Virus record (IMG/VR): IMGVR_UViG_3300028559_000007
Origin: an uncultured virus (IMG/VR IMGVR_UViG_3300028559_000007)
Lineage: Duplodnaviria; Heunggongvirae; Uroviricota; Caudoviricetes
Length of the DNA stretch: 64,000 nucleotides
Strand: one strand, 5' to 3'
Shown: one piece after another, positions 12,944 through 64,000 of the stretch
How the letters are laid out: every line of letters begins with the position of its first letter
Numbering within the stretch: position 1 is the stretch's first letter
Notes under the pieces: model-generated
Told to the model about the DNA's origin: nothing
Seen by the model: the letters and a program-made list of their open reading frames with translations, nothing else
Database searches by the model: none
Program-made: the position numbers and the translations under genes

Positions 12944-13810
12944 ATGAGAAGAACTTTTATAAAATATAATAAACAAGAGCTACTTGATAAGATAAATCTT
13001 ATATCGATTGAACAAGTTGGTAGTCAAGTAATAACTAAATATCGTGAGACAGTTACTTCAATTACAGAAGTATCTAATCGGTATGAAATTTTTGATATTA
13101 AATCTTATTTAAAGGATAAAATTGATGCAATAGAAAAGAATTTTAATATTGATAAATATTATTTTAGAATTACTAAAGGTGTTCAAGAATTAACTCTTCT
13201 AAGTGATACTATTGAAATAGAAAATGTTAAATTTTATAAATCATTTTTTATACTTAATTCATCTGATAAATCTAGAAAATTAAATTTTAATGCTGGTCTT
13301 TATTCCGATACTAATAATTTTTATTTAGTTTCATCAATAAAAAATCTTGGTCTAAATAAAAAACATCTTAGAGGTGTTACAGAAGCTGCTGAAATTGCTT
13401 CATCAGGATTTGGTGGTGAAACATTTAATGATCAAATTGAATCAATTATTTCACTTGTTGGTCACAAAATTTCACTTTCTAATCTTCGAAAATGTATCAT
13501 TAAAGATGATGAAATAAAATCTGAACATTCAAAATTTGATGCACTTAAAAATTCTATTATATACTATGCGTCAGAAGGTAGACTTAAATTAACAGAATCT
13601 CAATTTTTAACACTTAGAACTTTATCTGATAAACTAATAATTGATAATACTAACGATTTTTATGTAGACGCTTTTTGGATTTTTCAAACATACTTAAGAT
13701 TATTTAATAGGCAGGATTCTCATATTGTTAAGATTGAAACTGAAAGAATTATGTCAATAACTCAATGTTCAGTTAGAAACCAAATGCTAGAAGAACTAGG
13801 AATAATATGA
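12944..13810 (+). CDS. Hypothetical protein, weak DUF932-like motif; C-terminal tag
   Basis: ILNSSDKS...F.AG; ends RNQMLEELGII. Confidence 0.6.
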   Translation: MRRTFIKYNKQELLDKINLISIEQVGSQVITKYRETVTSITEVSNRYEIFDIKSYLKDKIDAIEKNFNIDKYYFRITKGVQELTLLSDTIEIENVKFYKSFFILNSSDKSRKLNFNAGLYSDTNNFYLVSSIKNLGLNKKHLRGVTEAAEIASSGFGGETFNDQIESIISLVGHKISLSNLRKCIIKDDEIKSEHSKFDALKNSIIYYASEGRLKLTESQFLTLRTLSDKLIIDNTNDFYVDAFWIFQTYLRLFNRQDSHIVKIETERIMSITQCSVRNQMLEELGII

Positions 13811-14271
13811 AAATATTAAAAGATCTCGATATAACTGGATTTGTAAATTTTCCTAGTCATAACCAAGTTAAGATAGTAGATTCAGGTAAAACACTGGTAT
13901 ATCTTGTAGCTTATGGTGAAGGTGAATCAAATATTAAATTACCTTTAATAGGGAATTTTTGTGGAGATGATGTATCACCTTCACAAAATGTTTTAACTTC
14001 ACAAAAGAATATTGAAGAAATTATAGATGAAATATCTAATAACATTGATAATACTAAAGAATACTATTTTGGAAATAGTCAATATTTTCCAGTTATTACA
14101 AGTATATTATTAGGATGGTCATTATATTCTTATGAATATAATGACCGAGTTAATAGTTGGTGTTGTAATTTTAGAGAATTAACAAATGAAGGTAAAAAAC
14201 TTTATTACTCAATAAAAAAACTTCACAATGATTGTGAATTAAGAATATTAACATTTAATAATATTAAATAA
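13807..14271 (+). CDS. Hypothetical protein
   Basis: ORF coupled to both neighbours by overlapping stop/start codons. Confidence 0.7.
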   Translation: MKILKDLDITGFVNFPSHNQVKIVDSGKTLVYLVAYGEGESNIKLPLIGNFCGDDVSPSQNVLTSQKNIEEIIDEISNNIDNTKEYYFGNSQYFPVITSILLGWSLYSYEYNDRVNSWCCNFRELTNEGKKLYYSIKKLHNDCELRILTFNNIK

Positions 14272-15698
14272 TGCAAATTGTAAAAAATATATTAATATCA
14301 AATACTTTAAGACAGGTTCTTTCACAATTTAAAGAAGAATCAGTTGTTGCTAACCTTCTCTTATCAGAAGATATTAGAGAAGATTTTCTTGTAGGTGAAC
14401 CAGTTAATTTTTTATCTATATCTGATTCAGATGAGAATAAAATATCCTATCTAACTAGAGATCGATCATCAAAAATCACAAGTGATGAATTTTGGTCTTC
14501 ATCTAAAAGATTTCATTGCAAACCAGGGTCATTAATTTCAAAAATATTTCGTGATATTTCTTCAAAAGAAATAGAGAAATTCTCAACACTGTTTAGAGCA
14601 TTTTCTTCAGTTAAAGAATTTAAATTTGAGATAGTTAAAGGTAATGATATAATAAAATATTATGACCAATATAACTATTCATCTGAATCAGGATCACTTG
14701 GTAATTCTTGTATGAAATATAGTAAATGTCAAAAATTCTTAGATATTTATAAAGATAATGACATAATATCTATGTTAGTTATGATAAATAATGAAAATAA
14801 GTTAATTGGAAGAGCACTTCTTTGGAATTTTGATGATAAAAAAATAATGGATAGAATCTACACATCAAATGATGAAGACTATCAATTTTATTTTAAAAAA
14901 TGGGCTATAAATAACGGGTATTCTTATAAGTCTAAACAAAATTGGACAAATACAATTCAATTAGTGAAAAATTCTAAAGATTTTGAAGAGAAATTAGATA
15001 TACAATTATCTAATTGGAATTATAATTATTATCCTTATTTGGATACTTTTAAATGGTTAGATATGAAAACCGGTAAATTATCAAACTATAAACCATCACA
15101 TTTTCAGAATCATAATGGTGATTATATTATTCTTATGAGTCCTGATGGTAGATATAACACTTCTGAGTGTCTTGAATTTGATTCAATATCAAAAGATTGG
15201 CATCATCAAGGAAGTTTACAATTTATTGAAGAACATCAGCTCTATACAAATAGAGATAATCTGAACTATTCAGAAACATTAGATAGATGGCTATTAAAGA
15301 GTGAATCTTCATATGTTGAAGAGATAAATGATTATATCTATACTGATATGGGGAAAGTTGATATTGATCTTTTAAATAAAAGAATTTTGTATATAAATAA
15401 TAAGAATTCTTTAAAAAAGAAAAATCCTTATGAATATCTATTTGAGCAACAAGTTGGAAGATCAGAAAGATATTATAATACAAGAGTAGAAATAGATAAT
15501 CAGCCACTTGACTATCAATTAGTTGATCAACCTGTAGCTACAGACGGAGTTGCCGCAGATACTCAGCCTGTGTTTCGGTTCTATGACGGCGCTGTAGATG
15601 GTGATACAACCCGTTCGCAAGTTATTATAGATTATATGAATTCAATTGCTGAAGCTGGTGATATTAGAGGCCGTCATTACTGGCGGTATACTGAGTAA
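14271..15698 (+). CDS. SCM/RALxW/MDRIY/YPYLDT family protein (paralog 1)
   Basis: GSLGNSCM, GRALLW, MDRIY, YPYLDT shared with ORFs at 35558 and 38497. Confidence 0.8.
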   Translation: MQIVKNILISNTLRQVLSQFKEESVVANLLLSEDIREDFLVGEPVNFLSISDSDENKISYLTRDRSSKITSDEFWSSSKRFHCKPGSLISKIFRDISSKEIEKFSTLFRAFSSVKEFKFEIVKGNDIIKYYDQYNYSSESGSLGNSCMKYSKCQKFLDIYKDNDIISMLVMINNENKLIGRALLWNFDDKKIMDRIYTSNDEDYQFYFKKWAINNGYSYKSKQNWTNTIQLVKNSKDFEEKLDIQLSNWNYNYYPYLDTFKWLDMKTGKLSNYKPSHFQNHNGDYIILMSPDGRYNTSECLEFDSISKDWHHQGSLQFIEEHQLYTNRDNLNYSETLDRWLLKSESSYVEEINDYIYTDMGKVDIDLLNKRILYINNKNSLKKKNPYEYLFEQQVGRSERYYNTRVEIDNQPLDYQLVDQPVATDGVAADTQPVFRFYDGAVDGDTTRSQVIIDYMNSIAEAGDIRGRHYWRYTE

Positions 15699-15738
15699 AA
15701 TTTTTTAAACAATTTATAGTATTCCATAATATAACATT

Positions 15739-17015: not shown

Positions 17016-17417
17016 ATGAAAGATTGGCCATCATATACAACAATAAAGTATTACTACAATGATAAAACTAGTAGTGATACTTTTCTTTTTAAAGAAAACT
17101 ATAAAGAAGCAATGTTACTTGGTAGTATAGTTTTAACAGAAGATGGTAGAGTTTATTTTACTGCTTCTGGAGGAGGAAAACCAATATTACCAGATAGATT
17201 GGTAGATGATGGTATTTATCCATATGAGTTTATGAATATAAAGGAGATAGAATATTGTTTAATGTATCAACCATATGATTTTGATGATGAATGGTGGAAA
17301 GCTCACGCAATGTATTCTAAATTTTTCTGGAGAATGCTGGTTTCAGATATGAGAGATACTAAAATAAAATTTTTACAAGAAGATTTAAAAGACTTAGAAT
17401 GGATTCACCGAGATTAA
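17016..17417 (+). CDS. Hypothetical protein with RDTKIKFL tag
   Basis: ORF. Confidence 0.65.
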   Translation: MKDWPSYTTIKYYYNDKTSSDTFLFKENYKEAMLLGSIVLTEDGRVYFTASGGGKPILPDRLVDDGIYPYEFMNIKEIEYCLMYQPYDFDDEWWKAHAMYSKFFWRMLVSDMRDTKIKFLQEDLKDLEWIHRD

Positions 17418-21264: not shown

Positions 21265-21600
21265 GTGGTATTACCTAATTTTAATAAAATGACGTGGTTT
21301 GATGGTTCTTATAATGTTTCAATAAATAATCCACAAAAATATAAAAATGAATTTGAATCTTTTAAGAGAAAACTAGGTAAACATAAATACTGGTTTGAAT
21401 CTCTTGGAATAAAGAAACAATGGGATCTTCTTTTCATTTGGAAAAAAGAAAAATATTTCTATCAAAATACATTACAAACAAAAAACAATCAAGTGTCATT
21501 GAAAAAGTTTTTATATGAAAAAAGAAATTCTAGACAATTTTTTGTTCCTAAAGAAAGACTTAGAGAAAGTGCACTAAATAATCTATTCAATAATATATGA
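21265..21600 (+). CDS. Hypothetical protein with C-terminal tag
   Basis: Ends RESALNNLFNNI; true start may be downstream. Confidence 0.6.
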   Translation: MVLPNFNKMTWFDGSYNVSINNPQKYKNEFESFKRKLGKHKYWFESLGIKKQWDLLFIWKKEKYFYQNTLQTKNNQVSLKKFLYEKRNSRQFFVPKERLRESALNNLFNNI

Positions 21601-22562: not shown

Positions 22563-22999
22563 TGGGATTTTATGGACCAACTATCATATTAAATGATGAT
22601 GTTCAAATATCTGGAACATTTACATATGATGCAAAAATATCAGATATTTCTGAATATTTAGAGAGCGATGGGTATGAAGTTATTGCACCAACTACTGAAA
22701 TATGTAAATATTTTAAGGATAAAATTAAATACACTTTACCAAGTATAAAATGTTTTTGTGTATTGAATAATAGATTAGAAGTTTGGAATCAACTTCCAAA
22801 TATTCATATTTTTACTAGTAAAAATGATGTTATTGAATATTTAGAAGATAATAGTAAAATATATTATTTAGTCAAAGTTTCAAAAACCAACGCATATGGT
22901 TTAGAAACTTGGAGTCTATATGTATTTGAAAAATCAAATATCTCTAATCTAAGAGAAAATAAAATAAATAAAATTTTAGATGAAAATAATTCTATGTGA
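22562..22999 (+). CDS. Hypothetical protein with C-terminal tag
   Basis: Ends RENKINKILDENNSM. Confidence 0.7.
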   Translation: MGFYGPTIILNDDVQISGTFTYDAKISDISEYLESDGYEVIAPTTEICKYFKDKIKYTLPSIKCFCVLNNRLEVWNQLPNIHIFTSKNDVIEYLEDNSKIYYLVKVSKTNAYGLETWSLYVFEKSNISNLRENKINKILDENNSM

Positions 23000-27344: not shown

Positions 27345-28020
27345 TCATGATATAATCTTTTATGGATTTGATACTATTAAAAAATGGAATATATCAGAAG
27401 ATGTAGTAAATGCTATTAAAAAAATTAAATGGAAATCTGAAGAAGGGTATTATACTAAAATATTAGTATCTACGGAAATTGATAATATTGATATTATTAA
27501 AAATTATTGTGGAGAATTTAATTCATCTGATTTTTATAATAGAGTTTCCATAGGTATACAATTTTTCACAAGACATATTAGATTTCATGATTTAGATGAA
27601 GATTTTATAAAAAACAATAATATAGAACAATATCATATTGATTTAATTAATAGATTATATTTTGATGAGGAATTAGATGAATATGTAATAATATCAACAG
27701 CTGATAAACGGCCTTTTGGCAATTCATCAATTGAATATGATATTTTAGATGTATTATATCCAGGACAAAAAGATTCTGATAAAAGGAGAAAGGAGAAAAT
27801 AGAAAAATGTTGGATTGTATTTGACGAAATATTTAATATTTTAATTAAATTATTTAAAGATTTTCCAATGAAATTTAGAAATTTTGTTTCTTTTAATAAC
27901 GTTGAGTTTGATAAAATATGTTTAGAACAGAAATCATATTATAGTCATGGTTGGGCACCTTGTATTTCAGAGTTTAGAGAAATTAAAATAAATAATATTC
28001 TAAATGAAGTTATTAGATAA
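27331..28020 (+). CDS. Hypothetical protein with C-terminal tag
   Basis: Ends REIKINNILNEVIR. Confidence 0.7.
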   Translation: MARIDHDIIFYGFDTIKKWNISEDVVNAIKKIKWKSEEGYYTKILVSTEIDNIDIIKNYCGEFNSSDFYNRVSIGIQFFTRHIRFHDLDEDFIKNNNIEQYHIDLINRLYFDEELDEYVIISTADKRPFGNSSIEYDILDVLYPGQKDSDKRRKEKIEKCWIVFDEIFNILIKLFKDFPMKFRNFVSFNNVEFDKICLEQKSYYSHGWAPCISEFREIKINNILNEVIR

Positions 28021-28666
28021 ATATAAAGTGGCTATCGGTAAACCAGATTATTACCAAAGTGGTGGATTCAATTGGTTAAATCCATTTATAAAAGGTGTTC
28101 CAATGAAAGATGTTAAACAACTTTCATTTTCATCATTATATCCAAATATAATTTGTGGATTAGTAGAATCTGGATATCATGAAAAGGCAAGTAAAAAGTT
28201 GATATCAGGAATGATTGAGTTTAGTGAAAAATTTGATTATTTCTCTAAAAATAGATTAGTATTAAAGTCTGATGAAAATTTATATAAAGAGTATAAAACT
28301 TATATAAATTCATTTTACGGAACTCTTGGATATATGTCTAAAGTTGAAGGAGAGGTTGACTTTATTACTATGGTTGCTCAGTATTTGAACGCTTATTATA
28401 CTGATCTATTAGAAGAGAATAAATATAGAATTCTATACATAGATACTGATACTATTTTTTATTGTGATGAATTAGATTTATTAGGATTCAATATTAATTA
28501 TGATATTGAGGAAATTCCATATATTTTAATTGAAGAAAAGAAAAGATATATAACTAAAAAAGAAGATTTTAAAGCAAAAGGATATAAAGGAAAGAATATT
28601 CAAACTGCAATTGATTTGCTTAAAACTCTTATACGTGATGATAAAATAGAAAAACTTGGTATATGA
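28004..28666 (+). CDS. Truncated family-B DNA polymerase palm/fingers domain, likely inactive
   Basis: SFSSLYP (motif A Asp replaced by Ser), K...NSFYG, YIDTD, KKRY; only 220 aa; ends RDDKIEKLGI. Confidence 0.8.
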   Translation: MKLLDKYKVAIGKPDYYQSGGFNWLNPFIKGVPMKDVKQLSFSSLYPNIICGLVESGYHEKASKKLISGMIEFSEKFDYFSKNRLVLKSDENLYKEYKTYINSFYGTLGYMSKVEGEVDFITMVAQYLNAYYTDLLEENKYRILYIDTDTIFYCDELDLLGFNINYDIEEIPYILIEEKKRYITKKEDFKAKGYKGKNIQTAIDLLKTLIRDDKIEKLGI

Positions 28667-28854
28667 AAGTGTATGTAATTTTTGATCCCTTATATGACAT
28701 AGTAGTTTGTGTTCATGAAGAACCAAATATGACCTGCGAAAAATGTAAGTACAATGGTATTAATGATGGGTATGGTATTAGTGAAAGTGAATTTGAATTA
28801 ATTAAATCTAAAGCTAACCTAAGAAATGAAAAAATTAATAAATTAGGAATATGA
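28663..28854 (+). CDS. Small protein with C-terminal tag
   Basis: Ends RNEKINKLGI; ATGA coupling. Confidence 0.75.
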   Translation: MKVYVIFDPLYDIVVCVHEEPNMTCEKCKYNGINDGYGISESEFELIKSKANLRNEKINKLGI

Positions 28855-29057
28855 AATTGCCATCAATATTAGATTTAGCAAAAGATGCTCAAAATGATTT
28901 AAAATCAAAAGAAGAACTTTTAAAGGAATTAGAAAAAGACACATTAAATGCTTATATTGTAATTTCTTTGAAAGGAGAAATACATGATCTAAAATTTATT
29001 TTAAGTAAATTTAAAACTGAATTAAGAAACGAAAAATTAAACGATTTAGGGATATGA
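28851..29057 (+). CDS. Small protein with C-terminal tag
   Basis: Ends RNEKLNDLGI; ATGA coupling. Confidence 0.75.
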   Translation: MKLPSILDLAKDAQNDLKSKEELLKELEKDTLNAYIVISLKGEIHDLKFILSKFKTELRNEKLNDLGI

Positions 29058-29314: not shown

Positions 29315-29595
29315 TACCAGAGATAGGAGACAAATTTATTATTGATTGGAAAAGAATTAGTAAAAACCAAAATATAAAAATGTGTTATTTACCAGATTTA
29401 GAATTTACAATAGATAGATTTACCAAATCTAAAATGTCTATTTATTTTTCAGATAATAGAACCAATAAAAAATGCAAGTGTTTAATATGCTCATATAATA
29501 AAACCGAAAAATGTATAGGGTTATACAATATTATTATAACTCAGAAGAAAATATCTATTGATAGAAGTAATAAATTAAAAAGATTAGGAATATGA
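29311..29595 (+). CDS. Small Cys-containing protein with C-terminal tag
   Basis: Ends RSNKLKRLGI; ATGA coupling. Confidence 0.75.
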   Translation: MIPEIGDKFIIDWKRISKNQNIKMCYLPDLEFTIDRFTKSKMSIYFSDNRTNKKCKCLICSYNKTEKCIGLYNIIITQKKISIDRSNKLKRLGI

Positions 29596-30486: not shown

Positions 30487-30799
30487 ATGTATAAAAGATA
30501 TTAAAAATATAATAATAGGTCATATCTACCAAACTGAACTAATACTTATTTTAGAAGATATAGAGTTAAAATTGATTAGTGAAGAAAATTTAAATCATAT
30601 TTTGATTAATAAATATTGTGATTTGATTAATATTTTTATTACTCAAATTCCAGTATTTCTTAAATTTGATGATTCTTCACCCGGAATTACAATTGAAGCC
30701 AATGTTATTGATACTAGAAAAAGGAAATCTTTAGATTTACTAGATAATTTAATAAAAGATATCAGAGAAAATAATATAAATAAAATTTTAGAAAAATGA
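30461..30799 (+). CDS. Hypothetical protein with C-terminal tag
   Basis: Ends RENNINKILEK. Confidence 0.7.
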   Translation: MTTKGLIFKCIKDIKNIIIGHIYQTELILILEDIELKLISEENLNHILINKYCDLINIFITQIPVFLKFDDSSPGITIEANVIDTRKRKSLDLLDNLIKDIRENNINKILEK

Positions 30800-31815: not shown

Positions 31816-32424
31816 ATGGGTTACAATAAACAAAATCTATATTATGAAGGCAGATTTGGTAGAAAACCAAAAACACGAACTATTGAAATGGTTCATGATT
31901 TGTGGATTAGAGCTAAAATTAGGTCTGATAAAAAAAGAAAAGATTTAATAGATTGTATTGATGAAATAATTAAAAATGTTGATCCTTTTAAAAAAGATTA
32001 TAGAGGAGATGATGAATTTAGAGTATTCTATAATAACGGAAAATATACTTGTTATTATACAATTTCTAAATCAAGATTAGGAGGATATGGATATTCTAAT
32101 GATGTTCTAGAATTTAAAAATCGTGATGATAAATTAACATTTTTACTAGCGAATCAAAATTCTTTTGAACTTGGTCAAAAATTTCACGAGTTGAATAAAC
32201 TTTCTTCATATCAACATGTTAGAGTAGAACAAATATTATCAGATATGTTGAATAAATACCTTCAAGATAATTATAAAGATTATACACCATTTAATGAAGT
32301 AATGAGTATTAAAATTTCAGATAAATCTTATTATATTAGTGTTGATAGTTCAAATTATCCTTATAAAAAATTTAAATTATTAAATGAAGTTTCAGAACCA
32401 ATAATAATTCCAAAAAATATCTAA
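31816..32424 (+). CDS. Hypothetical protein
   Basis: ORF; TATATTTG 4 nt upstream (near-leaderless). Confidence 0.75.
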   Translation: MGYNKQNLYYEGRFGRKPKTRTIEMVHDLWIRAKIRSDKKRKDLIDCIDEIIKNVDPFKKDYRGDDEFRVFYNNGKYTCYYTISKSRLGGYGYSNDVLEFKNRDDKLTFLLANQNSFELGQKFHELNKLSSYQHVRVEQILSDMLNKYLQDNYKDYTPFNEVMSIKISDKSYYISVDSSNYPYKKFKLLNEVSEPIIIPKNI

Positions 32425-36598: not shown

Positions 36599-37306
36599 TT
36601 AAGACCACAGGCTTTTAATTACTGAGTTAGCTTGTTTTTGACTTATAAAACCTTTATTTTTATAGTATCTCCAAACACTATCAAAGAAATAGTTACTAGA
36701 TCTTCTTTCTTCTGAAACTAAAAACCCCAATTGTCTTAATAAATTTTTATAAGGATTGGTATCTCCTAAAATTTCTTCAATTTTATTATCACGTATTTCA
36801 GATAAATCAAGATTCTCTTCTAAATAAGAGGTAAATTCCCACCACTCTTGTTCGCTAATTGTCCAATAATTCTTGGTATATGGAGATAAATGTATTTCTA
36901 TAAAAGATCCGTTATCAATTAATAATGATCCTTTAAGAGGACAATGTTTAAAACTAAAATCAATTCTTATATCATCTATTTTATCTATTCTACTAATATC
37001 AAATGGATTATCAAGATTAAACTTTTGAGATTTTCCAAAATTAGTATCTACATATTCACAATTTCCAAACTTAGACATAATTTGAAATAATTCATCACTA
37101 TCAATATCTTTAAATCTTTTATTATGGTTTAATAATGATAATATTGGTTTGAAAAAATCTTTATCATTAAAAATCTTTGGATCTACAATAGCATAATCCC
37201 CTATTATATTTAAAATGCCTTTGACTGGAATTAAAGATCCGGTATAATGATTTCGGTCAGTTCCAAAATCATCATCAATGTGTATTTTTATTTGATAGTT
37301 TAGCAC
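36599..37306 (-). CDS. Hypothetical protein with internal RDNKIEEIL tag
   Basis: ORF. Confidence 0.7.
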   Translation of the reverse strand: MLNYQIKIHIDDDFGTDRNHYTGSLIPVKGILNIIGDYAIVDPKIFNDKDFFKPILSLLNHNKRFKDIDSDELFQIMSKFGNCEYVDTNFGKSQKFNLDNPFDISRIDKIDDIRIDFSFKHCPLKGSLLIDNGSFIEIHLSPYTKNYWTISEQEWWEFTSYLEENLDLSEIRDNKIEEILGDTNPYKNLLRQLGFLVSEERRSSNYFFDSVWRYYKNKGFISQKQANSVIKSLWS

Positions 37307-40115: not shown

Positions 40116-41306
40116 ATGAAATTCTTAAAAAAATTTAATGAAAATAATTTAACAATTTATAATGAAAAAGTAAAAAAAATTTTTCCAAAAGAATTAGAAA
40201 TATACACTTCAGAAGGTAATTATAAACTTACTAAATCGGATATAACATGTGAGAATGATATTATAAGAGCATTCTATTATCAAAATACAGCTATTGATGG
40301 TAATGTAACTAAAGATGGCGAACCAGATAATTTATCACTTGATTTACATTTTGTTAAAAATGAAAATGGATTCAAAACACTTGTTGATATTAGTTACGGT
40401 GATCAAGTAAAGTCAGAGTTTTCTATTGAACAACCAAATAAAATATCTATTATTCATTATAACGGAATTGGATCAGTTGCTGATAAACATTCACAATTTG
40501 GATTTGAAGATAAATCAATAAATGATTTAGTTAATTTTTTTAATAATTTTAATTTTGGTTATAAACTTACTAAAGATGATTTCAAATTTATTGATAAATA
40601 TCCCGATAGTTTTAATTATAAAAATGAATCTATTAAATTAACTCCATTATCTAGTAATAAAAAAATACTAGTAATAAATAATAGTGGTAATAATGATAAT
40701 AGATTCTTAAATAATATTGTAAATTATTTAAGAATGAGGGGAATTGATCATATTATTATATCTGAAATAGATAAAATACCTAATTTTAAAAACATAATAG
40801 GTGCTATATCAACTGGTTCAGATTTTAGATTATCAAAATCTGATAAAGAAGCTAAATTATCATTTGAAATTTATAAAAATTTAAAAGCTCCAATTTTAGG
40901 AATATGTTATGGATTCCAATCTATGGTAAAATTTTATGGTGGAACTTTAAAAGATTCTGGAGACTTTATACATAAACATTTAAAATTAACAAAATATAAT
41001 AAAAAAAATTTTTTATTTAAAGATGTCGATCTAAGTAATACTGAATTTAGTTTTTCATTCCATGATATAATAGATAAAAATCCTAATGGATTTAATAAAA
41101 TTGCAATGTTAGATGATATGGTAGTAGGTATATCTGATGAACAAAGAAAAAGATATGGACTTTTATTTCATCCAGAAGATACTGAAATATCTTATACAGT
41201 TTTAGATAACTTTATTATGGTGTGTACCGGTGGTGTTGATGAACAAGAGAAATTAAAAATAGGTAAATTTGAAAATTTAATTAATTTTAAGAACTTCACT
41301 AATTAA
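40116..41306 (+). CDS. Unknown N-terminal domain fused to a class I glutamine amidotransferase
   Basis: PILGICYGFQ (catalytic Cys) and FHPE; starts MKFLKKFNE. Confidence 0.85.
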   Translation: MKFLKKFNENNLTIYNEKVKKIFPKELEIYTSEGNYKLTKSDITCENDIIRAFYYQNTAIDGNVTKDGEPDNLSLDLHFVKNENGFKTLVDISYGDQVKSEFSIEQPNKISIIHYNGIGSVADKHSQFGFEDKSINDLVNFFNNFNFGYKLTKDDFKFIDKYPDSFNYKNESIKLTPLSSNKKILVINNSGNNDNRFLNNIVNYLRMRGIDHIIISEIDKIPNFKNIIGAISTGSDFRLSKSDKEAKLSFEIYKNLKAPILGICYGFQSMVKFYGGTLKDSGDFIHKHLKLTKYNKKNFLFKDVDLSNTEFSFSFHDIIDKNPNGFNKIAMLDDMVVGISDEQRKRYGLLFHPEDTEISYTVLDNFIMVCTGGVDEQEKLKIGKFENLINFKNFTN

Positions 41307-41567
41307 ATGTTCTCTTAAAAAGAGAACTCTTTTCACTTTATAATCATAATTATCTATTAAGAATTTATCTAACTCAGATATAATATCTATAATTGTTATT
41401 TCACTTAACTTATAAGTAGCATATAAATTAAGTTTTCCAAAATAAAATTCAACCCATTGATAGTTATCATCTTCTTCAAATGGAACATCAGTTGTTAAAA
41501 TAACTGTAACACCATTTTTCTTAATTACTAATTCTTTAAGTATTTCAATTAGTATTTCTTTTTTCAT
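41277..41567 (-). CDS. Hypothetical protein with tag variant
   Basis: Ends REHLISEVLKIN; TATATTTG at 41571-41578. Confidence 0.65.
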   Translation of the reverse strand: MKKEILIEILKELVIKKNGVTVILTTDVPFEEDDNYQWVEFYFGKLNLYATYKLSEITIIDIISELDKFLIDNYDYKVKRVLFLREHLISEVLKIN

Positions 41568-42676: not shown

Positions 42677-43029
42677 AATCCTAATTCTTTTAGTCTAAAA
42701 TCTCTTAAATCTGAAACTCCTGGGACTTTGGCTCTTTCAGATTTACCTTTAGTTCCATCAGATTTAGTAGGTGCCCATTTACCAACTTTATCATATCCCG
42801 CTGTTCTAGAGAACAGCCTTTTTTCTTTTATAGGAATAAATCCTTTAATTGATAAAAATTGAGCATTTGTTAATTGCATTTTTTCATAAGGTAAATATTC
42901 ACCATCCACTTTGCGTGGAATTAAAATAAGTGTATATATACCATTATATTCTTGTATATAATCACCACTATTAGAATTTATCCAATAATTAGATTTAGAG
43001 AAATTTTTTATTTGTGGGTTAATATTCAT
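42673..43029 (-). CDS. Small protein with C-terminal tag
   Basis: Ends RDFRLKELGL. Confidence 0.7.
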   Translation of the reverse strand: MNINPQIKNFSKSNYWINSNSGDYIQEYNGIYTLILIPRKVDGEYLPYEKMQLTNAQFLSIKGFIPIKEKRLFSRTAGYDKVGKWAPTKSDGTKGKSERAKVPGVSDLRDFRLKELGL

Positions 43030-43047: not shown

Positions 43048-43401
43048 TTAGCAAGCTAAAATTAGTGTATCTTCGTAAGTTGATGTTATTTCGTCAATCT
43101 TTTTATTTCTAATATGAGTAGTTAATCTTTTCAATAAATACTCATTATATTTAATTTTTTCTTTTCGAACATTTTCATTAATATTAGATTTTTTTATTAG
43201 ATTATTAATACATTCTTGAATACATTCTAAAGAAACTAAATATTTGTTACCGTATTCACGAGTATATAAACTAATCTTATTATTGTATTCAACAATTTTA
43301 CAAACTCTATCAGCATATGGATCCCACTTAAAAGAACATAATTCAGTTTCTAATTCTTCTAGAATAAGAAATGCAGTATTATTAATAATTAAATATTCCA
43401 T
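43048..43401 (-). CDS. Small protein with tag
   Basis: RNKKIDEI near the C-terminus; TATATTTG at 43406-43413. Confidence 0.7.
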   Translation of the reverse strand: MEYLIINNTAFLILEELETELCSFKWDPYADRVCKIVEYNNKISLYTREYGNKYLVSLECIQECINNLIKKSNINENVRKEKIKYNEYLLKRLTTHIRNKKIDEITSTYEDTLILAC

Positions 43402-43447: not shown

Positions 43448-43780
43448 ATGGAAATTAAAGATTTAAAAATTGGATTATATTCCTTTGATATTAAAGGATT
43501 TAAAGTATCTTGTGTTTTGGTTGAGGATCAAGTATCTATTATGACCAATTTTTTCAAAATAATTGAAGAAAAAGGTTTGTCCTGGGAAGATGCTAAAAGA
43601 GAAGCATTAGGTAAATTAATTGATATCGAATATCCTGGTATTCCAGACCATGTTAAACCACATTATCAAGTTTCGTCAAGGTCAGCATATGCTTTTATAG
43701 AATTAGAAAAAAATCAAAGAATACAAGATTTAATTAAATCTATTGATAGAGATATAAACTTAGGAAAATTATTAGACTGA
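43448..43780 (+). CDS. Small protein with C-terminal tag
   Basis: Ends RDINLGKLLD. Confidence 0.7.
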   Translation: MEIKDLKIGLYSFDIKGFKVSCVLVEDQVSIMTNFFKIIEEKGLSWEDAKREALGKLIDIEYPGIPDHVKPHYQVSSRSAYAFIELEKNQRIQDLIKSIDRDINLGKLLD

Positions 43781-48071: not shown

Positions 48072-48576
48072 AAAATTAAGAAGTGATATTCGTGATGTTA
48101 AAATCAATATAATATTAGGAAATATCATATTAATGAAACCAAATATTAAAAGACTAAGAAAAGGTAACAACCGTTTTTTTAATCAAAAATATTGGAAAAT
48201 TCTTAAAGAATATAAAGGACAAATTATTACAGGATCTTGTTCATTATATGCTTATGGTCTTTTAGATAGGATGCCTAGTGATATTGATTTAATTGTAGAT
48301 AAGAGTAGTTTTTCTCCAAGTAAAAAATTACTTACAGATGAAAGATATGTGAAAAAGAAAGAATTTGACACTATCGGTTATTTTAGGAATCACGGATATT
48401 ATATTGATTTCTTTGATAATAATAATAATGCTAAATATATTGAAATAGATGGATTTTTGTTACATGATCCATTTGAAATTATTGATAAAAAATTAGAAAT
48501 GGGTAGAGAAGATTCAAAAGATATACACGATATTATTTATATTCTTAAAAAATTTAATCCTAACTATAAATTTTAA
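48058..48576 (+). CDS. Pol-beta superfamily nucleotidyltransferase-like protein
   Basis: TGS.SL..YG...R.PSDIDL, KD..D; tag-like RDVKINIILG near the N-terminus. Confidence 0.7.
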   Translation: MELIEKLRSDIRDVKINIILGNIILMKPNIKRLRKGNNRFFNQKYWKILKEYKGQIITGSCSLYAYGLLDRMPSDIDLIVDKSSFSPSKKLLTDERYVKKKEFDTIGYFRNHGYYIDFFDNNNNAKYIEIDGFLLHDPFEIIDKKLEMGREDSKDIHDIIYILKKFNPNYKF

Positions 48577-48577
48577 T

Positions 48578-51863: not shown

Positions 51864-52433
51864 ATGAAAGTTTGGTATCTTAAAAGTCGTAATGGAAGAA
51901 GTGGTAGATTCTTCACAACAGAAAAATCTTATTTAAGTTCAACTAATAAAGAAGATAATCGTCTATTATACGTATTAGATGTTTCAAATATAAATGGTGT
52001 TAAATCAGGAGATTATTACTCCAATTTACTTCTTGAAAGAGAACGTGATGAACAATTATCTATTATTTTAGATGAAGGTGATAATTTTACTAAAAACTTT
52101 GCTTTATTTAAAAGAAAATTTGAAGAAATTGCACCTAGTGATAGTGATCCTATAAATTTTAAAACTTATTATATTACTAAGTCTAAAATAAGTAGAATAC
52201 TTAAAACAGTTAATGAGAAAAAAGACTTCTCAAATATGGTATCTATGGATATACATAAAATTTATCTATTATATGCAATGCCACCAACCGTTGAGTGGTT
52301 TGAAACTATTTTGAGATGTCATAACTTCCAAGCATTACCAGACACTAAAAGATTTACTGCCTCTGAGGAAAGAAAAGAAAATTTCTTGAAAGCTAAAGAA
52401 AATCTAAAACAACAATCTAAAAAGAAAAAATAA
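51864..52433 (+). CDS. Hypothetical protein with internal RDEQLSIIL tag
   Basis: ORF. Confidence 0.7.
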   Translation: MKVWYLKSRNGRSGRFFTTEKSYLSSTNKEDNRLLYVLDVSNINGVKSGDYYSNLLLERERDEQLSIILDEGDNFTKNFALFKRKFEEIAPSDSDPINFKTYYITKSKISRILKTVNEKKDFSNMVSMDIHKIYLLYAMPPTVEWFETILRCHNFQALPDTKRFTASEERKENFLKAKENLKQQSKKKK

Positions 52434-52834
52434 TGTATTGTATCTCTTGTAAAAAAAATAATGTAATAGCTATAGATTTTAAATATAGTAAAAAGACTAT
52501 AAATGGTGGTGGGGAATACGAGAGAAAATATGATACAGAAGAAAGTATAGTTTGGAAAAAAGATAGAAAACCGGATGGTAGTCTTGTAAATATTAATAAC
52601 GAAATGATAGATAATGGTATTATACACATAATAGATGCTGGGTATGGATCAAAACATGATGGTGATCAATTTATATTAGCTATTTGTGATGATTGTATTA
52701 AAACGAATTTAGAAGAAGCTACTATTCTTTATTATGGTAATTATATGTATAAGTACGAGCCTTTTGTAGAGGAAGATATTAGTAAATCAAAAAAGAAATA
52801 TAACAGAAGAAAAAATTTAGATGATTTAGTATGA
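52433..52834 (+). CDS. Zn-binding (CxxC..CxxC) protein with tag
   Basis: CISC, GYGSKHDGD, ICDDC; ends RRKNLDDLV. Confidence 0.7.
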   Translation: MYCISCKKNNVIAIDFKYSKKTINGGGEYERKYDTEESIVWKKDRKPDGSLVNINNEMIDNGIIHIIDAGYGSKHDGDQFILAICDDCIKTNLEEATILYYGNYMYKYEPFVEEDISKSKKKYNRRKNLDDLV

Positions 52835-53049
52835 ATAAGAAATTAGATTTATTAAAATCAATTATAAATGATAATAGTGAAGTTTATTTTGATGTTAAGT
52901 ATATTGAGGAAATGTTTTTAGGAATTAAAACCTGTAAATCATGTGGAATTAAAGAATCAATTGAGTACTTATCTAGTAAAAATGATTTTGAATATTGTTG
53001 TAGGTCATGTGAAAGAGACAGTAAAATAAATAAATTAGGATTAAAATAA
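52831..53049 (+). CDS. Small Zn-finger protein with tag
   Basis: CKSC..CRSC; ends RDSKINKLGLK. Confidence 0.7.
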   Translation: MNKKLDLLKSIINDNSEVYFDVKYIEEMFLGIKTCKSCGIKESIEYLSSKNDFEYCCRSCERDSKINKLGLK

Positions 53050-55048: not shown

Positions 55049-55243
55049 ATGAAAAATCCTATCTTTAATTTCCTCAAGTCATTAATATTTGGACTTGGAC
55101 TTTATTGTTTATTAACAATACCACATTTTATATTCTTATATACTTCTGGAGAAAGTGGTATACAATATCCTATAGAATTAATATATTTTATTGGTTTAAC
55201 TAGTGGATTTTTTTCTAGCAGTTTATCTAAAATTTTTAGTTAA
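55049..55243 (+). CDS. Small two-TM membrane protein
   Basis: Hydrophobic; TATATTTG at 55037. Confidence 0.65.
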   Translation: MKNPIFNFLKSLIFGLGLYCLLTIPHFIFLYTSGESGIQYPIELIYFIGLTSGFFSSSLSKIFS

Positions 55244-55806: not shown

Positions 55807-56000
55807 TGTATAATAAAGAGCTTAAAAAAGATTTAGAAAAAATAATAATCCAAAAAGATATAAATATTGTTAGTGGTGTTATTGGTGGATACTCTATTGA
55901 TATAGAATCTGAATCTGAACTAACTAGCTATATATATTATAATAAAGTCTCTCAAAGAGATTCAGATATAAATGAATTATTAAGTTTATTTACCAAGTAA
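55806..56000 (+). CDS. Small protein with tag variant
   Basis: RDSDINELL near the C-terminus. Confidence 0.6.
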   Translation: MYNKELKKDLEKIIIQKDINIVSGVIGGYSIDIESESELTSYIYYNKVSQRDSDINELLSLFTK

Positions 56001-56399
56001 ATCATCTAATTTTTCATTTCTATTTTTATTCAATCTAATAAAATTTATTTTTTCATTTGATGATTCGATCATTTCTTGATATAATTTTTCAAAATATTCA
56101 GTGTCTACTAAATAGACACTATGAGGTTTATCTGTATAAAAGTCATCTTTACTAATTGGATTTATTTTATAATGTGATGTAAATTCTCGAAATCCACCTC
56201 TAGATCTACCAATAGGTTTTAAATGAAATATAATTTTAGTATTTAAATTACCTTGACTTCTTATTATATCATAAGAATCATAAGATACTTCATTAACTAT
56301 TAAATCTAAAACTTTACACCATTCATAGATTGTAACACCATTATCATATCCATTTTCAAAAGCAACTAAATCCCCACGATTAAATTTTTGACTACTCAT
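55986..56399 (-). CDS. Hypothetical protein with tag
   Basis: Ends RNEKLDDLLGK. Confidence 0.7.
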   Translation of the reverse strand: MSSQKFNRGDLVAFENGYDNGVTIYEWCKVLDLIVNEVSYDSYDIIRSQGNLNTKIIFHLKPIGRSRGGFREFTSHYKINPISKDDFYTDKPHSVYLVDTEYFEKLYQEMIESSNEKINFIRLNKNRNEKLDDLLGK

Positions 56400-60699: not shown

Positions 60700-60726
60700 A
60701 TTAAATAATAATTTATAAATATAAAT

Positions 60727-60755: not shown

Positions 60756-60758
60756 AAA

Positions 60759-62048
60759 TTATCTTTTTATTAGTTTAGATATAGTTTTTGATCCATCTGG
60801 ATGATTGACCTCAAAATAATAATAACTATATTTTAAATCTGATACATCAAATTTTTCAGTTCCTTTAAATGTCTTTACTTTTTTTCCAGAAAAATCTAAA
60901 ACGTTGATAACAACCTCTTCTGAATTAGTTAAATATATTACATCTGAAAATGGATTAGGATATAGTATATCTTCCGTGTCTTCATTACTTGTAAAGATAT
61001 CATCAACATCAACAATCTTTTGATACTGAGTTTGATTCTGTTCTGTTTGACAATCTTGAATTACTAAAATACCATCAACATCGTATCCATCAGCAGAACC
61101 AGAAAAATCTAAGTGAGATGAACGATCTGTTAATCTAATATATTTAAACCAATCTGTAAATTGAACATCAACATATCCATCTAAACAAATTATATCAACA
61201 TATTCCCAATTTTCTAAATCTTTAGAAACTTCAATATAAACCTTTTCTGGATAATCTTCACAAATAGGATTACCATAAGTTGTTTCAGTTAATTGTAAAT
61301 CCCATCCTGGTTGATTAAATTTTACATAATCTAAACTTAAAATTAAACAACCACCAAAACCAAGAGATACAAAATTAACAACTTGATTACCTTGTGGAAT
61401 GCCTAAGGCGTTTAAAGGATTAGTTCTAGCTAAAGATATTGGTGTTCCATTTTGACGATTACCTGGTATATATTCTACAACTCCTGTTGCAAATCCAGAT
61501 TGAAGAGATGTTGGAGTTGATTCTGTTTCTAAATAATAACCTTCAATGGCATCAACATCATAACCATCAGCTTCAGTATAACGCTTAAACCCATCATATG
61601 GTGATGTATCTACTATTCTAATGTAATTAGCCCAATTAAGTTCACCTAAATCTAATTCATCATCTTGACAAATAATTCCTAAAGGAATAAAATTACAACC
61701 ATCTTGTGATGCAAAAACCCATGCTTTTTCAGGATAAACATTACATGATGGCGAACCAAATGTTGTTTCCCAAATTTTTAAATCAAACCCCTCACCATTT
61801 TTAATAGGCTGAGACATTTTAATCGTAATACTACCACCAAATCCTAATGAAACAAAATTCAATTCATCTGTATTTGTAGTTGTTCCCAACGATTTATTAG
61901 GATTACTTCTTTCTTCAATAATAGGATTAGCTAAATTTGTAGTTGATTGTTGAAAACTAGAAATTTCGCCACCCCAAATTGATTGTGAGTAACTAGTTAT
62001 GCTTAACAAACATAAACTAATAAAGATTATTTTTTTCAATTTTTTCAT
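60759..62048 (-). CDS. Secreted protein: signal peptide, duplicated domain and T9SS (Por) type A C-terminal sorting domain
   Basis: MKKLKKIIFISLCLLSITSYSQ; 2x NFVSLGFGG..ADGYDVD; LYPNPFSD..V.DFSGK.V..D.S.L....Y..KLIKR. Confidence 0.85.
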   Translation of the reverse strand: MKKLKKIIFISLCLLSITSYSQSIWGGEISSFQQSTTNLANPIIEERSNPNKSLGTTTNTDELNFVSLGFGGSITIKMSQPIKNGEGFDLKIWETTFGSPSCNVYPEKAWVFASQDGCNFIPLGIICQDDELDLGELNWANYIRIVDTSPYDGFKRYTEADGYDVDAIEGYYLETESTPTSLQSGFATGVVEYIPGNRQNGTPISLARTNPLNALGIPQGNQVVNFVSLGFGGCLILSLDYVKFNQPGWDLQLTETTYGNPICEDYPEKVYIEVSKDLENWEYVDIICLDGYVDVQFTDWFKYIRLTDRSSHLDFSGSADGYDVDGILVIQDCQTEQNQTQYQKIVDVDDIFTSNEDTEDILYPNPFSDVIYLTNSEEVVINVLDFSGKKVKTFKGTEKFDVSDLKYSYYYFEVNHPDGSKTISKLIKR

Positions 62049-62144
62049 AAGATATTTATTTTTGATTTATATATTATATGCCCAATAAGGCTTTTAGTTG
62101 AGTGATTGAAAAATTAGTTTTTTTAGTATAATTTTTTTATATTT

Positions 62145-62798: not shown

Positions 62799-63182
62799 AA
62801 AATTTTAATTTAACAATAAAATATGTTATATCTACTACTAAAAAATCTTTAATTTTAACAGTCATTAAGAGTTTTGATCATAGAGATTATAATAATATAA
62901 TTGTTACTGAAAAAGATATTATGGAATATAAAAATTCAACAGATACTAAAATAATAGTGGATCAGATTTTAACAGGAATGGGAATGGATCGAACGCATCA
63001 GATTTTAGAATTATTTAATTGACTGTAAAATTGAATGGATATTTTTTAAAAATGATCCTGAGAAATGTTTAATGAATTCTAAAGTTAGAAATAGAGCCAA
63101 CTCTATTTCTTTTAAACCTGTTAAAAAAGTAGAATCTTTTATAAAGAATTTTAATCAATATTATACAATACCCAAAGGATCA

Positions 63183-63536
63183 TTAATTGTTGATGTTTGG
63201 TAATATTAGTTGTTTTAATAGTTTATCTCGATTATATCTTTTAGTAATATCAATTAGTTCTTTACCAATACAATTATTTGTATCAATCCAGGATAATTTA
63301 TTGCCTATTCTTATCAAATTATTAGATTTTTTAACTATAAACTCGTTATATTTATTAGATATAGTTTCACCAATTAAACTTTTCCTTATTTTATAATAAA
63401 TTATTATATTTCTTGGACTTTTGATGTAGTATATGAAATAGTCTCCCGGATATAATGTAAAATTTGTAAAACAAATATCAATTGATAATTCAGTTTGAAC
63501 TTCTAAAACTTTATATTCACTTTCTGGTAGAATCAT
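63183..63536 (-). CDS. Hypothetical protein with tag
   Basis: RDKLLKQLIL near the C-terminus; TACTTTTG at 63540-63547 (-). Confidence 0.65.
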   Translation of the reverse strand: MILPESEYKVLEVQTELSIDICFTNFTLYPGDYFIYYIKSPRNIIIYYKIRKSLIGETISNKYNEFIVKKSNNLIRIGNKLSWIDTNNCIGKELIDITKRYNRDKLLKQLILPNINN

Positions 63537-63598
63537 ATACAAAAGTAAAAAAAATTTTTGTATTTTAAAAGTAAAAAATTTTTTTGTATCTTTGTATT

Positions 63599-64000
63599 AT
63601 GGAAAAATTATACTGCTTTCTAAGACAAGAAACTGATAAATCAACTAGTGCTTATAGTTATGCAGTTGCCAATATAGATCTGTTTAGAAAAATAACACCT
63701 GCAATAACCCAAGAACATTTTTTTAGATGGGAATATAATTTAGACCATTTAGAAACAGGACAATTATTTTACTATTCTAAAGAAATATTACCTGGTCAAA
63801 TGACTATAAAAGTTGAACCACTTGATATAAAAAAATATGAATCTATTATAAAATTATATAGATTATATGTAAGTTCTGGAGTTACTACTACATCTAGTAA
63901 TTCTTTAAGAAATAAAGTATTAGTTTATTTGGAAAATTATTATGCTAAAGTTATTGTCAAAGAAATGAGAGATTTAAAAATTAATGAAATATTAGATGGA
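63599..64000 (+). CDS. 3'-truncated hypothetical protein reaching the tag at the window edge
   Basis: ATG after TATCTTTG; last codons read EMRDLKINEILDG. Confidence 0.7.
   Translation, partial: MEKLYCFLRQETDKSTSAYSYAVANIDLFRKITPAITQEHFFRWEYNLDHLETGQLFYYSKEILPGQMTIKVEPLDIKKYESIIKLYRLYVSSGVTTTSSNSLRNKVLVYLENYYAKVIVKEMRDLKINEILDG

Follow-up and report, generated by a model that had tools for sequence, protein, structure and literature searches.

A recurrent C-terminal peptide tag on unrelated small proteins of a T4-like megaphage and its relatives

A recurrent C-terminal tag and its conservation

Why do dozens of otherwise unrelated proteins in one stretch of phage DNA end in nearly the same short peptide, and what might read it? 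We examined this question in a 64,000-nt stretch of an uncultured virus of the Caudoviricetes (IMG/VR record IMGVR_UViG_3300028559_000007), referred to below as the window, in which 106 non-overlapping ATG-initiated open reading frames (ORFs) of at least 40 amino acids (aa) were called. The peptide, hereafter the tag, was scored with a loose pattern (R-x3-[IL]-x2-[ILV], starting within the last 16 residues) and a strict pattern (R-[DNE]-x-[KRN]-[IL]-x2-[IL]). The loose pattern was present in 30 of the 106 ORFs, compared with 1.6 ± 1.3 in whole-protein shuffles (at most 6 in 1000 shuffles) and 2.1 ± 1.5 (at most 8) when the last 30 residues were shuffled, and the strict pattern in 18, compared with 0.06-0.12 (at most 2). 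Thus, enrichment of the tag at C-termini over composition-matched shuffles is present for both patterns. Position by position, strict matches are 57 times as frequent in protein tails as in protein interiors (18/954 vs 6/18,036). As a background, 80 loci of unrelated phages that had been taken for another purpose contain 33 loose matches among 2393 ORFs (1.4%) and one strict match. All carriers of the tag lie among the 92 ORFs from position 12944 onward (30/92), and none among the 14 ORFs before it. The first-pass annotation of this DNA, made from the letters alone, had counted about 33 tagged ORFs; the same number is reached when the ORF running off the window end and the near-terminal copies in ORFs 17016 and 43048 are added to the 30. 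The numbers that it gave are the low ends of the ORFs rather than motif positions.

The window belongs to a T4-like megaphage that is kin to 'Mahaphage' genomes of 634-642 kb. Its Prs protein is 72% identical to that of LR756502.1 (W03; 642,428 bp) and 71% to that of LR745206.1 (634,780 bp), and about 40-44% to those of LR756501.1 (W01; 735,411 bp) and LR756504.1 (W02; 636,363 bp), the W labels denoting uncultured phage records. Passages of PMC7162821 describe a 'Mahaphage' clade of the largest phage genomes with Bacteroidetes as predicted hosts, and we infer that these four records belong to it. LR745206.1 encodes T4-like proteins, including the Gp23 capsid protein, Gp20 portal, T4-type terminase, gp32, UvsX-like RecA and a split family-B polymerase. 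A database protein that is 91% identical to the DUF1281 protein of the window is encoded on a 633,653-bp contig. Megablast of window positions 26000-50000 against phage records produced no match. The whole-genome comparison set comprised LR745206.1, W01, W02 and three IMG/VR contigs, G001 (483 kb), G003 (508 kb) and G006 (165 kb, 52% complete). G006 is the closest relative, with 82% identity on the 288-aa protein of the window; a further contig, G007, is a 17%-complete fragment. A search for related loci with the single 288-aa protein gave none, and a 3-row alignment gave eight loci.

The tag is also abundant beyond the window. Loose matches were found in 191 of 945 ORFs of LR745206.1 (18.0 ± 4.5 in shuffles; strict matches 105 vs 0.7), 73 of 636 in G001 (10.2 in shuffles), 160 of 767 in G003 (13.7), 48 of 245 in G006 (4.2) and 157 of 929 in W02 (17.3). 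Tagged ORFs thus make up 11-21% of the ORFs in these five relatives, each at least 7 times its shuffles. W02 has only eight strict matches and follows a variant consensus, R-K-x-[K/I/R]-I-x-x-L-[L/I]-stop, in which K replaces D/E/N at position +1 after the arginine. The tag is absent from the 735-kb W01 (17 loose matches in 1025 ORFs vs 12.2 in shuffles, and no strict match). This genome has a motif of its own, D-P-Y-G-E-E-x-W, which 40 proteins carry within their last 16 residues and 53 others internally, and which was found neither in the window nor in the other five genomes.

Tag status is inherited among homologs. Homologs of the window carriers are tagged in 9 of 9 cases in G006, 7 of 8 in LR745206.1, 2 of 3 in G001 and 3 of 4 in G003, compared with 0 of 91 homologs of non-carriers. 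Two of the three untagged exceptions are nucleotidyltransferase orthologs (LR745206.1 and G001) that keep the tag but have about 20 residues added after it; the third is a 387-aa homolog of the 288-aa protein in G003 (39% identity), the end of which has no tag. The carrier repertoire turns over: only 2 of 204 homolog pairs between LR745206.1 and W02 are tagged in both members.

The consensus spans about 13 residues, [K/I/L]-[S/Q/E]-x-[I/L]-R-[D/E/N]-x-K-[I/L]-x-x-[I/L]-[L/G/I], with one or two residues usually left before the stop codon. Counted from the arginine (R0), the extended consensus of LR745206.1 has K/I/L at -4, S/Q/E at -3 and I/L at -1; its stop lies 8-16, mostly 10-11, residues past R0, and the letters after +8 are variable. 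An ending with G at +8 (LG[IL]) is found in 10 of the 30 window carriers and is rare in G003 and W02; LGI and LL endings interchange between orthologs.

Selection on the tag acts on the protein and not on the DNA: codons are free, and core residues are conserved whereas synonymous sites change at the pace seen elsewhere in the gene. In the window, R0 is encoded by AGA (22), CGT (5), AGG (2) and CGA (1), the same as background usage, and the I/L positions use eight codons (TTA, ATA, ATT, CTA, ATC, CTT, CTC and TTG), in agreement with the codon variation described in the first-pass annotation. Among 41 ortholog pairs of G001 and LR745206.1, the six core tag positions show an amino acid identity of 0.88 vs 0.61 for the body, and where the residue is identical the codon is shared at 0.70 in the tag and 0.64 in the body. 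A second set of 77 pairs, in which the tag was required in the query only to avoid conditioning on the pattern, gave identities of 0.95 (R0), 0.68 (+1), 0.79 (+3), 0.78 (+4), 0.74 (+7) and 0.72 (+8), compared with 0.56 for the body and 0.45-0.57 for the non-core positions +2, +5 and +6. The i, i+3, i+4, i+7, i+8 rhythm of the conserved positions points to one face of an alpha-helix. With a single conserved face, the tag would most likely plug every carrier into the same partner, and a putative common receptor is probable.

Carrier proteins, tag positions and a second label

The copies of the tag in the window are listed below by motif position, strand, motif and ORF.

13775..13801 (+), RNQMLEELG then II-stop, ORF 12944-13810, 288 aa; kept in the G006, LR745206.1 and G001 orthologs
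21562..21588 (+), RESALNNLF, loose, ORF 21289-21600, 103 aa; G006, LR745206.1 and G001 homologs tagged
22952..22978 (+), RENKINKIL, strict, ORF 22562-22999, 145 aa
26930..26956 (+), RNLKLEELG, ORF 26495-26965, 156 aa; G006, LR745206.1 and G003 orthologs tagged
27976..28002 (+), REIKINNIL, ORF 27331-28020, 229 aa; G006 ortholog tagged
28634..28660 (+), RDDKIEKLG, ORF 28004-28666, 220 aa; G006 and LR745206.1 orthologs tagged
28822..28848 (+), RNEKINKLG, ORF 28663-28854, 63 aa; G006 ortholog tagged
29025..29051 (+), RNEKLNDLG, ORF 28851-29057, 68 aa
29282..29308 (+), RGLNLEKLG, loose, ORF 29054-29314, 86 aa; G006 ortholog RDYNLEKLGI
29563..29589 (+), RSNKLKRLG, loose, ORF 29311-29595, 94 aa; G006 and LR745206.1 orthologs tagged
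30764..30790 (+), RENNINKIL, ORF 30461-30799, 112 aa
31069..31092 (+), RQEIISKI-stop, weak and loose only, ORF 30796-31095, 99 aa; identical letters in the G006 ortholog
41289..41315 (-), REHLISEVL, weak and loose only, may be a chance match, ORF 41277-41567, 96 aa
42413..42439 (-), REIYLNDIL, ORF 42404-42676, 90 aa; tagged LR745206.1 homolog by body-only blastp (33% over 39 aa, E=1.3e-5), none by full-length search
42679..42705 (-), RDFRLKELG, ORF 42673-43029, 118 aa; LR745206.1 and G003 orthologs tagged
43748..43774 (+), RDINLGKLL, ORF 43448-43780, 110 aa
46740..46766 (+), RDKHINIVI, loose, ORF 46404-46772, 122 aa
47623..47649 (+), RDKKIGNIL, ORF 47113-47655, 180 aa
49229..49255 (+), RDRKIDDIL, DUF1281 protein, ORF 48578-49267, 229 aa
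49837..49863 (+), REEKLKELG, ORF 49522-49869, 115 aa; next gene on the opposite strand
52805..52831 (+), RRKNLDDLV, loose, ORF 52433-52834, 133 aa; identical letters in the LR745206.1 ortholog
53014..53040 (+), RDSKINKLG, ORF 52831-53049, 72 aa
54321..54347 (+), RNIRLNKLV, ORF 54045-54356, 103 aa
54991..55017 (+), RDLKIKQII, putative nucleotidyltransferase, ORF 54349-55026, 225 aa
55768..55794 (+), RDYKLINIL, ORF 55243-55806, 187 aa
55956..55982 (+), RDSDINELL, ORF 55806-56000, 64 aa; converges on and overlaps the next tagged gene
55995..56021 (-), RNEKLDDLL, ORF 55986-56399, 137 aa
58251..58277 (+), RHRKINSII, loose, ORF 57387-58289, 300 aa
60277..60303 (-), RDNKIKNLL, ORF 60262-60699, 145 aa
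63204..63230 (-), RDKLLKQLI, weak and loose, ORF 63183-63536, 117 aa
63968..63994 (+), RDLKINEIL, near the end of ORF 63584-64000, which runs off the window
17352..17378 (+), RDTKIKFLQ, near-terminal, 21 residues from the end, ORF 17016-17417
43084..43110 (-), RNKKIDEIT, near-terminal, 20 residues from the end, ORF 43048-43401
36767..36793 (-), RDNKIEEIL, internal between two modules, ORF 36599-37078/37306; same place in the LR745206.1 ortholog
48091..48117 (+), RDVKINIIL, N-terminal copy, ORF 48058-48576; kept in the LR745206.1 ortholog
52044..52070 (+), RDEQLSIIL, internal, loose, residue 61, ORF 51864-52433
32122..32148 (+), RDDKLTFLL, internal strict match at residue 103, of uncertain status, ORF 31816-32424

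Strict matches farther from the C-terminus thus comprise two near-terminal (17016 and 43048), two internal (31816 and 36599) and two N-terminal ones (48058, and a doubtful one in ORF 26151). The internal and N-terminal copies claimed previously do exist, at residue 96 of ORF 36599, residue 12 of ORF 48058 and residue 61 of ORF 51864, and both the N-terminal placement in ORF 48058 and the between-module placement in ORF 36599 are conserved in LR745206.1. When the tag was removed, 173 of 184 LR745206.1 carriers had no paralog at E<=1e-3. As far as sequence comparison can tell, the tag is therefore portable, occurring on unrelated bodies and at the C-terminus, at the N-terminus or between modules.

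In LR745206.1, carriers are short (median 107 vs 161 aa) and are grouped in ORFan blocks outside the structural and replication region. Membrane-like segments are rarer in carriers than in other proteins (30/409 vs 267/2268, p=0.008). Five of 39 scanned window proteins match PHROGs families, namely 48578, 54349 (weakly), 43048, 17016 and 47673; among them, 48578 and 54349 carry the tag at the C-terminus, 43048 and 17016 have near-terminal copies, and 47673 is untagged. Pfam names 7 of the 80 longest LR745206.1 carriers, most of which are chance loose matches, as are the Mtase, NUDIX and Metallophos cases. The C-terminal helix of ClpP (…RYGMIDEIL…) also fits the loose pattern and was taken as the ordinary end of the ClpP fold, not as a tag. 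Upstream of tagged genes, the promoter words TATAAATA and TAnnTTTG show no clear difference from other genes, so that no timing class can be assigned to the tagged genes.

The identities proposed earlier for three carriers fared differently. The supposed PolB fragment at 12944 is the 288-aa carrier, which has no Pfam, PHROGs or Protein Data Bank (PDB) sequence match; the PDB search, run on the 12944 and 14271 proteins, returned nothing at E<=1. The nucleotidyltransferase at 54349 has weak matches (Pfam PolyA_pol, E=0.004; phrog_2244, E=1.9e-4) and is retained here as putative. In LR745206.1, the ortholog of this protein (571551-572561, -) has an extra N-terminal module of about 110 aa ending in …SRNQKIRSLGV…, which looks as if two neighbouring tagged genes had fused. 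The DUF1281 assignment at 48578 is solid (PF18406, E=6.6e-14). The tag is present in only a part of this family: the ending R-D-[RQK]-[RQK]-I-D-x-[IV]-[LI] is shared by 70 of its 120 best database homologs, and one genuine tag was found among 74 members in 80 other phage loci. The untagged forms of 290-305 aa (P0065-P0120) end in an E-x-[YF]-E-x-[AI]-x-x-[ILV]-[DKR] helix, a putative alternative C-terminal module where the short forms have the tag. In an AlphaFold2 model of the window DUF1281 protein, the tag forms a helix (214-228) with a mean predicted local distance difference test (pLDDT) score of 94. A fold search with this model recovered only Api92 (2ijr) and was uninformative on the seating of the tag helix.

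Several carriers are copies of parts of head proteins. Tagged copies of major capsid protein parts (residues 344-530 and 494-539) are encoded at 207176-207907 (+) and 255010-255237 (-) in LR745206.1 and at 144179-144931 (+) and 198754-198957 (-) in G001, and are conserved between these two genomes. Further tagged copies derive from a large protein encoded just upstream of the major capsid gene.

A second label, M-[KE]-[YFH]-[LIV]-K-x-[FY], is found at the N-terminus of seven window ORFs:

18675-19607 (-), second-label ORF
35106-35534 (+), second-label ORF
40116-41306 (+), second-label ORF
43772-44929 (-), second-label ORF
46773-47090 (-), second-label ORF
49858-50634 (-), second-label ORF
58541-59506 (+), second-label ORF

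There are 13-48 members of this MKYLKxF class in the five whole-genome sets with the R-tag and one in W01. Altogether, four proteins have both labels, 155 only the N-terminal one, 655 only the C-terminal tag and 2814 neither (Fisher p=1e-9), so the two classes are mutually exclusive, which fits alternative addresses. In line with the first-pass annotation, the tag is absent from the seven MKYLKxF-class ORFs and from the metabolic enzymes Prs (21597), NadE (45521) and M42 peptidase (50761).

As for the rest of the window, its short ORFs are densely packed, and its G+C content ranges from 20 to 40%. Two giant collagen-repeat ORFs, at 5681-9601 (-; 1306 aa) and 9632-12832 (-; 1066 aa), have a G+C content of 37-40%; outside this stretch it is 20-29%, save for the bin at 12-14 kb (32%), which overlaps with the end of the stretch. 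Pfam matches among the window ORFs include HU, a SET domain, two GIY-YIG endonucleases, Prs, RNA ligase, PARG, UvdE, NadE and M42 peptidase. The HU protein (385-660, -) and the SET-domain protein (979-1338, -) are host-like genes, and GIY-YIG/NUMOD homing-endonuclease-like genes lie at 19623-20618 (-) and 25555-26154 (+). A protein with a type IX secretion system (T9SS) C-terminal sorting domain (60759-62048, -) and an OmpH-like protein (16512-16988, +) are likewise host-like and fit a Bacteroidota host.

The phage Clp machine as a possible reader, and rival readings

The explanation that we prefer, tentatively, is that the tag is a portable docking helix on accessory proteins and is read by a phage Clp machine. 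In this scheme, T4-like megaphages of Bacteroidota would attach the tag to a large and fast-changing set of small soluble accessory proteins. The machine would consist of a ClpC-like unfoldase, one to three ClpP copies, ClpS and a small phage-only UVR protein; the unfoldase would have lost the usual N-terminal adaptor domain and kept a UVR-type middle domain and the ClpP-docking VGF loop, and the small UVR-motif protein would resemble the plastid co-adaptor ClpF in layout. The tag could then act as a degron, setting the time at which carriers are removed, or as an adaptor tail that brings the carrier's bound partner to the protease. Tagged copies of capsid and neighbouring-protein pieces would suit bait or adaptor proteins.

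The identification of the common receptor with the phage Clp system is a guess, a possibility that we put forward from one phylogenetic contrast and from analogy. Among the LR745206.1 proteins, 141 are common to G001, G003 and W02, and 29 of these have no match in the tag-less W01. Among the 29 are ClpP1, ClpP2, ClpS (PF02617, E=1.9e-16) and a protein of 129 aa with a UVR motif at its end. No ClpP was found in W01 by hidden Markov model search, and its ATPase has Clp_N and no VGF-type loop in D2. The proteostasis genes of LR745206.1 encode two ClpP, a 701-aa two-ring Clp ATPase, Hsp70, DnaJ, a second J-protein, GrpE, PrkA and SpoVR. Its Clp loci are as follows:

423224-425329 (+), ClpC-like ATPase
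316859-317248 (-), small UVR protein
180414-180695 (-), ClpS

In place of Clp_N, the LR745206.1 ATPase begins with some 45 residues that are acidic and probably disordered. Its middle domain is of the UVR type, and D2 contains a G-V-G-F loop of the kind that docks on ClpP. The ClpC-like ATPase is present in the five whole-genome R-tag sets, in W03 and in contigs G002, G004 and G005, and gave no match in the fragment G007. A VGF loop is found in D2 of all those read (LR745206.1, G001, G003, G006 and W02), and Pfam scans of the ATPase found no Clp_N in LR745206.1, G001 and W02. The small UVR protein matches the middle domain of the ATPase and falls in virus-only clusters. Together with ClpS, the layout recalls plastid ClpC-ClpF-ClpS1. 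In plastids, according to parts of PMC7966870, ClpF docks on ClpC via UVR motifs and forms a binary adaptor with ClpS1. The sections of PMC7824862 that deal with ClpP and ClpS in jumbo phages present them as likely weapons against host proteins and mention no tag.

A number of points weigh against the Clp machine as reader. Its co-occurrence with the tag rests on a single tag-less genome, W01, which is the most distant relative and has no match for 25 other shared genes, so that phylogeny alone could explain the pattern. W01 also has its own abundant terminal motif and no ClpP, so that ClpP would be dispensable for the function of the tag if both motifs serve the same one. The phage ATPase is without the N-domain, the classical docking site for adaptor tails, on which ClpS, too, normally depends. 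Known Clp C-degrons depend on a free end, and here 1-7 variable residues follow the motif, with internal and N-terminal copies conserved. The tag helix of the DUF1281 protein has a pLDDT of around 90 and may therefore be packed against the domain that carries it instead of being exposed. G006 is tagged, yet gave no ClpP or ClpS match, which says little either way because it is a fragment. Nor is the tag itself a UVR motif, as no carrier scanned matches Pfam UVR (PF02151: none of the 30 window carriers at E<=0.01, and none of the 80 longest of 190 LR745206.1 carriers at E<=0.001). That the tag is half a UVR motif is no more than a lead, the hydrophobic register after R-D being off by one residue. 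At the C-ends of untagged long DUF1281 forms, 2 of 10 have any UVR match (P0098 passes the Pfam cut-off, P0075 is weak). A complex prediction run without controls for the G001 UVR protein (3-row alignment), ClpS (4-row) and a 70-aa tagged protein gave ipSAE values of 0.02 and 0.01, which speak neither for nor against binding.

One extension of the Clp explanation, which we consider unlikely, is targeted proteolysis. Each genome would hold 70-190 fast-evolving small binders, including capsid decoys, that dock caught host proteins to phage ClpC-ClpP via ClpS and the ClpF-like UVR co-adaptor for destruction, and sister clades would have arrived at such a label anew, using other peptides. Possible targets of such binders would be defence sensors or take-over targets.

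Other readers have to be set against the Clp machine. The tag might be a virion address, loading carriers into the assembling head or another virion part for injection with the DNA; the phage would then have two packaging signals, the tag and a T4-like one at the N-terminus. Gp23, Gp20 and a T4-type terminase mark the phage as T4-like, T4 packages polymorphic internal proteins via a short terminal peptide, and the carriers are small, variable and lineage-specific, some of them copying capsid and neighbouring head-gene pieces. We nevertheless regard this address as doubtful, since the tag is C-terminal with no conserved cleavage site, the MKYLKxF class is closer to the T4 signal and mutually exclusive with the tag, and 150-190 different cargo species per genome would be unprecedented. 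The receptor could also be a conserved host protein (for example RNA polymerase, ribosome, protease, chaperone, nucleoid or division protein) at which carriers gather as take-over factors. The consensus hardly changes between genomes with no more than 40-67% identity in the proteins that they share, as would suit a receptor that evolves slowly; the ORFan arrays that hold the carriers are similar to the early regions of T4, and in the relevant part of PMC7824862 phage ClpS is expected to feed host ClpAP. However, the +1 switch from D/E/N to K in one lineage needs a matching receptor change, which would be easier if the receptor is phage-encoded or the lineage has a different host, and a host hub appears less likely still than the virion address. 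That the tags bind each other, a membrane or nucleic acid as a self-assembly or localisation helix, bringing the carriers together in one body or place with no dedicated receptor, is quite improbable. The motif, short and amphipathic, located at the ends of chains and conserved in its basic and hydrophobic residues, would suit this role, and it is modelled as a helix in the DUF1281 protein; but the helical pattern, in which R0 sits mid hydrophobic stripe and is followed by D/E/N, is unlike membrane-targeting helices, the invariant single residues point to a specific pocket, and carriers are somewhat poor in membrane-like segments.

Two further explanations are very hard to sustain. A tail resembling the PIP box could tether carriers to the phage gp45-type sliding clamp, given the C-terminal location and the similarity of the [DNE]-x-K-[IL]-x-x-[IL]-[LG] spacing to Q-x-x-[ILM]-x-x-[FY]-[FY]. 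Yet the split PolB of LR745206.1 ends in …RRLSVVMDIFGGFK and its G003 homolog in …TVIMDIFGGL, T4-type clamp tails that are unlike the tag, and the carriers are ORFans rather than replication or transcription proteins; with the phage polymerase ending in a different, T4-type tail, the clamp is a most improbable reader. Finally, the recurring letters might be no protein signal at all, and instead a nucleic-acid element at gene ends, such as a promoter, a terminator or a site for ribosome binding or coupling to the next gene, or the relic of one diverged gene family. Indeed, 57% of tagged LR745206.1 genes abut a co-oriented gene vs 40% of untagged ones, and the LG[IL]-stop variant puts GGA or GGT a few bases before an overlapping ATGA start. 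However, 43% of the tagged genes are followed by a gap of more than 10 bases (22%) or an opposite-strand neighbour (21%), showing that the tag is independent of the following gene, and one pair in the window converges and overlaps. There is no constraint on codons or synonymous sites, copies at an N-terminus or inside a protein are conserved, and the paralog-free bodies and differing known folds (DUF1281 and nucleotidyltransferase) speak against common descent. This last explanation is thus largely refuted, with a negligible chance left to it.

Comparison with known systems

No published description of the tag motif was found in a literature search at the level of listings and abstracts. The first-pass annotation had read the tag as a portable address with no described equivalent. 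The address part is supported by protein-level selection, portability and exclusivity with the N-terminal class, while the second part is too strong, as functional analogues are well known: the T4 capsid-targeting sequence (CTS), clamp-binding tails, and Clp degrons or adaptor tails. If one peptide does address between 1 in 10 and 1 in 4 genes in the largest known phages, most of their dark ORFans would share one step of mechanism, and discovery of the single receptor would explain hundreds of proteins per genome. The tag also offers a simple sequence handle to pick this class of carriers from metagenomes, and sister clades with a variant or different tag are natural comparative material. Should the receptor be the phage Clp machine, this would be a case of virus-encoded substrate selection for bacterial proteolysis, and possibly a portable degradation or docking tag for Bacteroidota.

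Among known systems, the clamp tails of T4/RB69 gp43, gp33 and gp55 are likewise short C-terminal peptides on several proteins; they are hydrophobic and recognised by one ring-shaped hub, but the phage polymerase has another, T4-like tail and the carriers are not DNA or RNA enzymes. Membrane helices of the MinD/FtsA type, which have a separate hydrophobic face bordered by basic residues and no invariant polar residue within it, are not matched by the helical pattern, R0 (0.95 identity among orthologs) lying between +4 and +7 on the conserved face with D/E/N next to it. No encapsulin or microcompartment shell family was found among the 246 LR745206.1 non-carriers of at least 190 aa that were scanned, of 301 such proteins lying on one locus and eight more that span locus borders.

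The T4 CTS, found on the internal proteins IPI-III and Alt, is N-terminal and clipped by the prohead protease. Like the tag, it is a short terminal peptide on unrelated polymorphic accessory proteins of a T4-type phage; it is read by one partner, as the tag would be. In contrast, the tag sits at the C-terminus, only rarely inside a protein or at its N-terminus, and lacks a cleavage motif; the LR745206.1 logo shows no conserved E after the tag as at the [LI]-x-E site of the prohead protease. The tag is also present on 11-28% of ORFs, compared with a handful of proteins for the CTS. The MKYLKxF class of the same genomes, which we take to resemble the CTS, is more CTS-like than the tag and does not share proteins with it beyond chance.

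Clp signals comprise the ssrA-type and MuA-type C-terminal degrons for ClpX/ClpA and the C-terminal ClpX-binding tail of SspB. They too are short peptides at the C-terminus, and through them one AAA+ protease receives many unrelated proteins or adaptor-bound cargo. The tagged phages encode such a protease. The tag differs in its unrelated sequence and in that the phage unfoldase is without the N-domain that reads adaptor tails. Moreover, recognition of the tag would be independent of a free end, because variable residues follow it, 20 extra residues are tolerated and internal copies are conserved. In composition there is a likeness to plastid ClpC1-ClpS1-ClpF as described in parts of PMC7966870: a UVR middle-domain unfoldase, ClpS and a small UVR co-adaptor, all three kinds of which are encoded by the megaphages. 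Plastid ClpF has a YccV domain, whereas the phage UVR protein has an unrelated helical N-terminal part, and the clients of ClpF/ClpS1 have no known shared degron. If targeted proteolysis were its role, the phage system would be to a bacterial virus what F-box-like adaptors are to poxviruses, and would act much as PROTAC drugs do.

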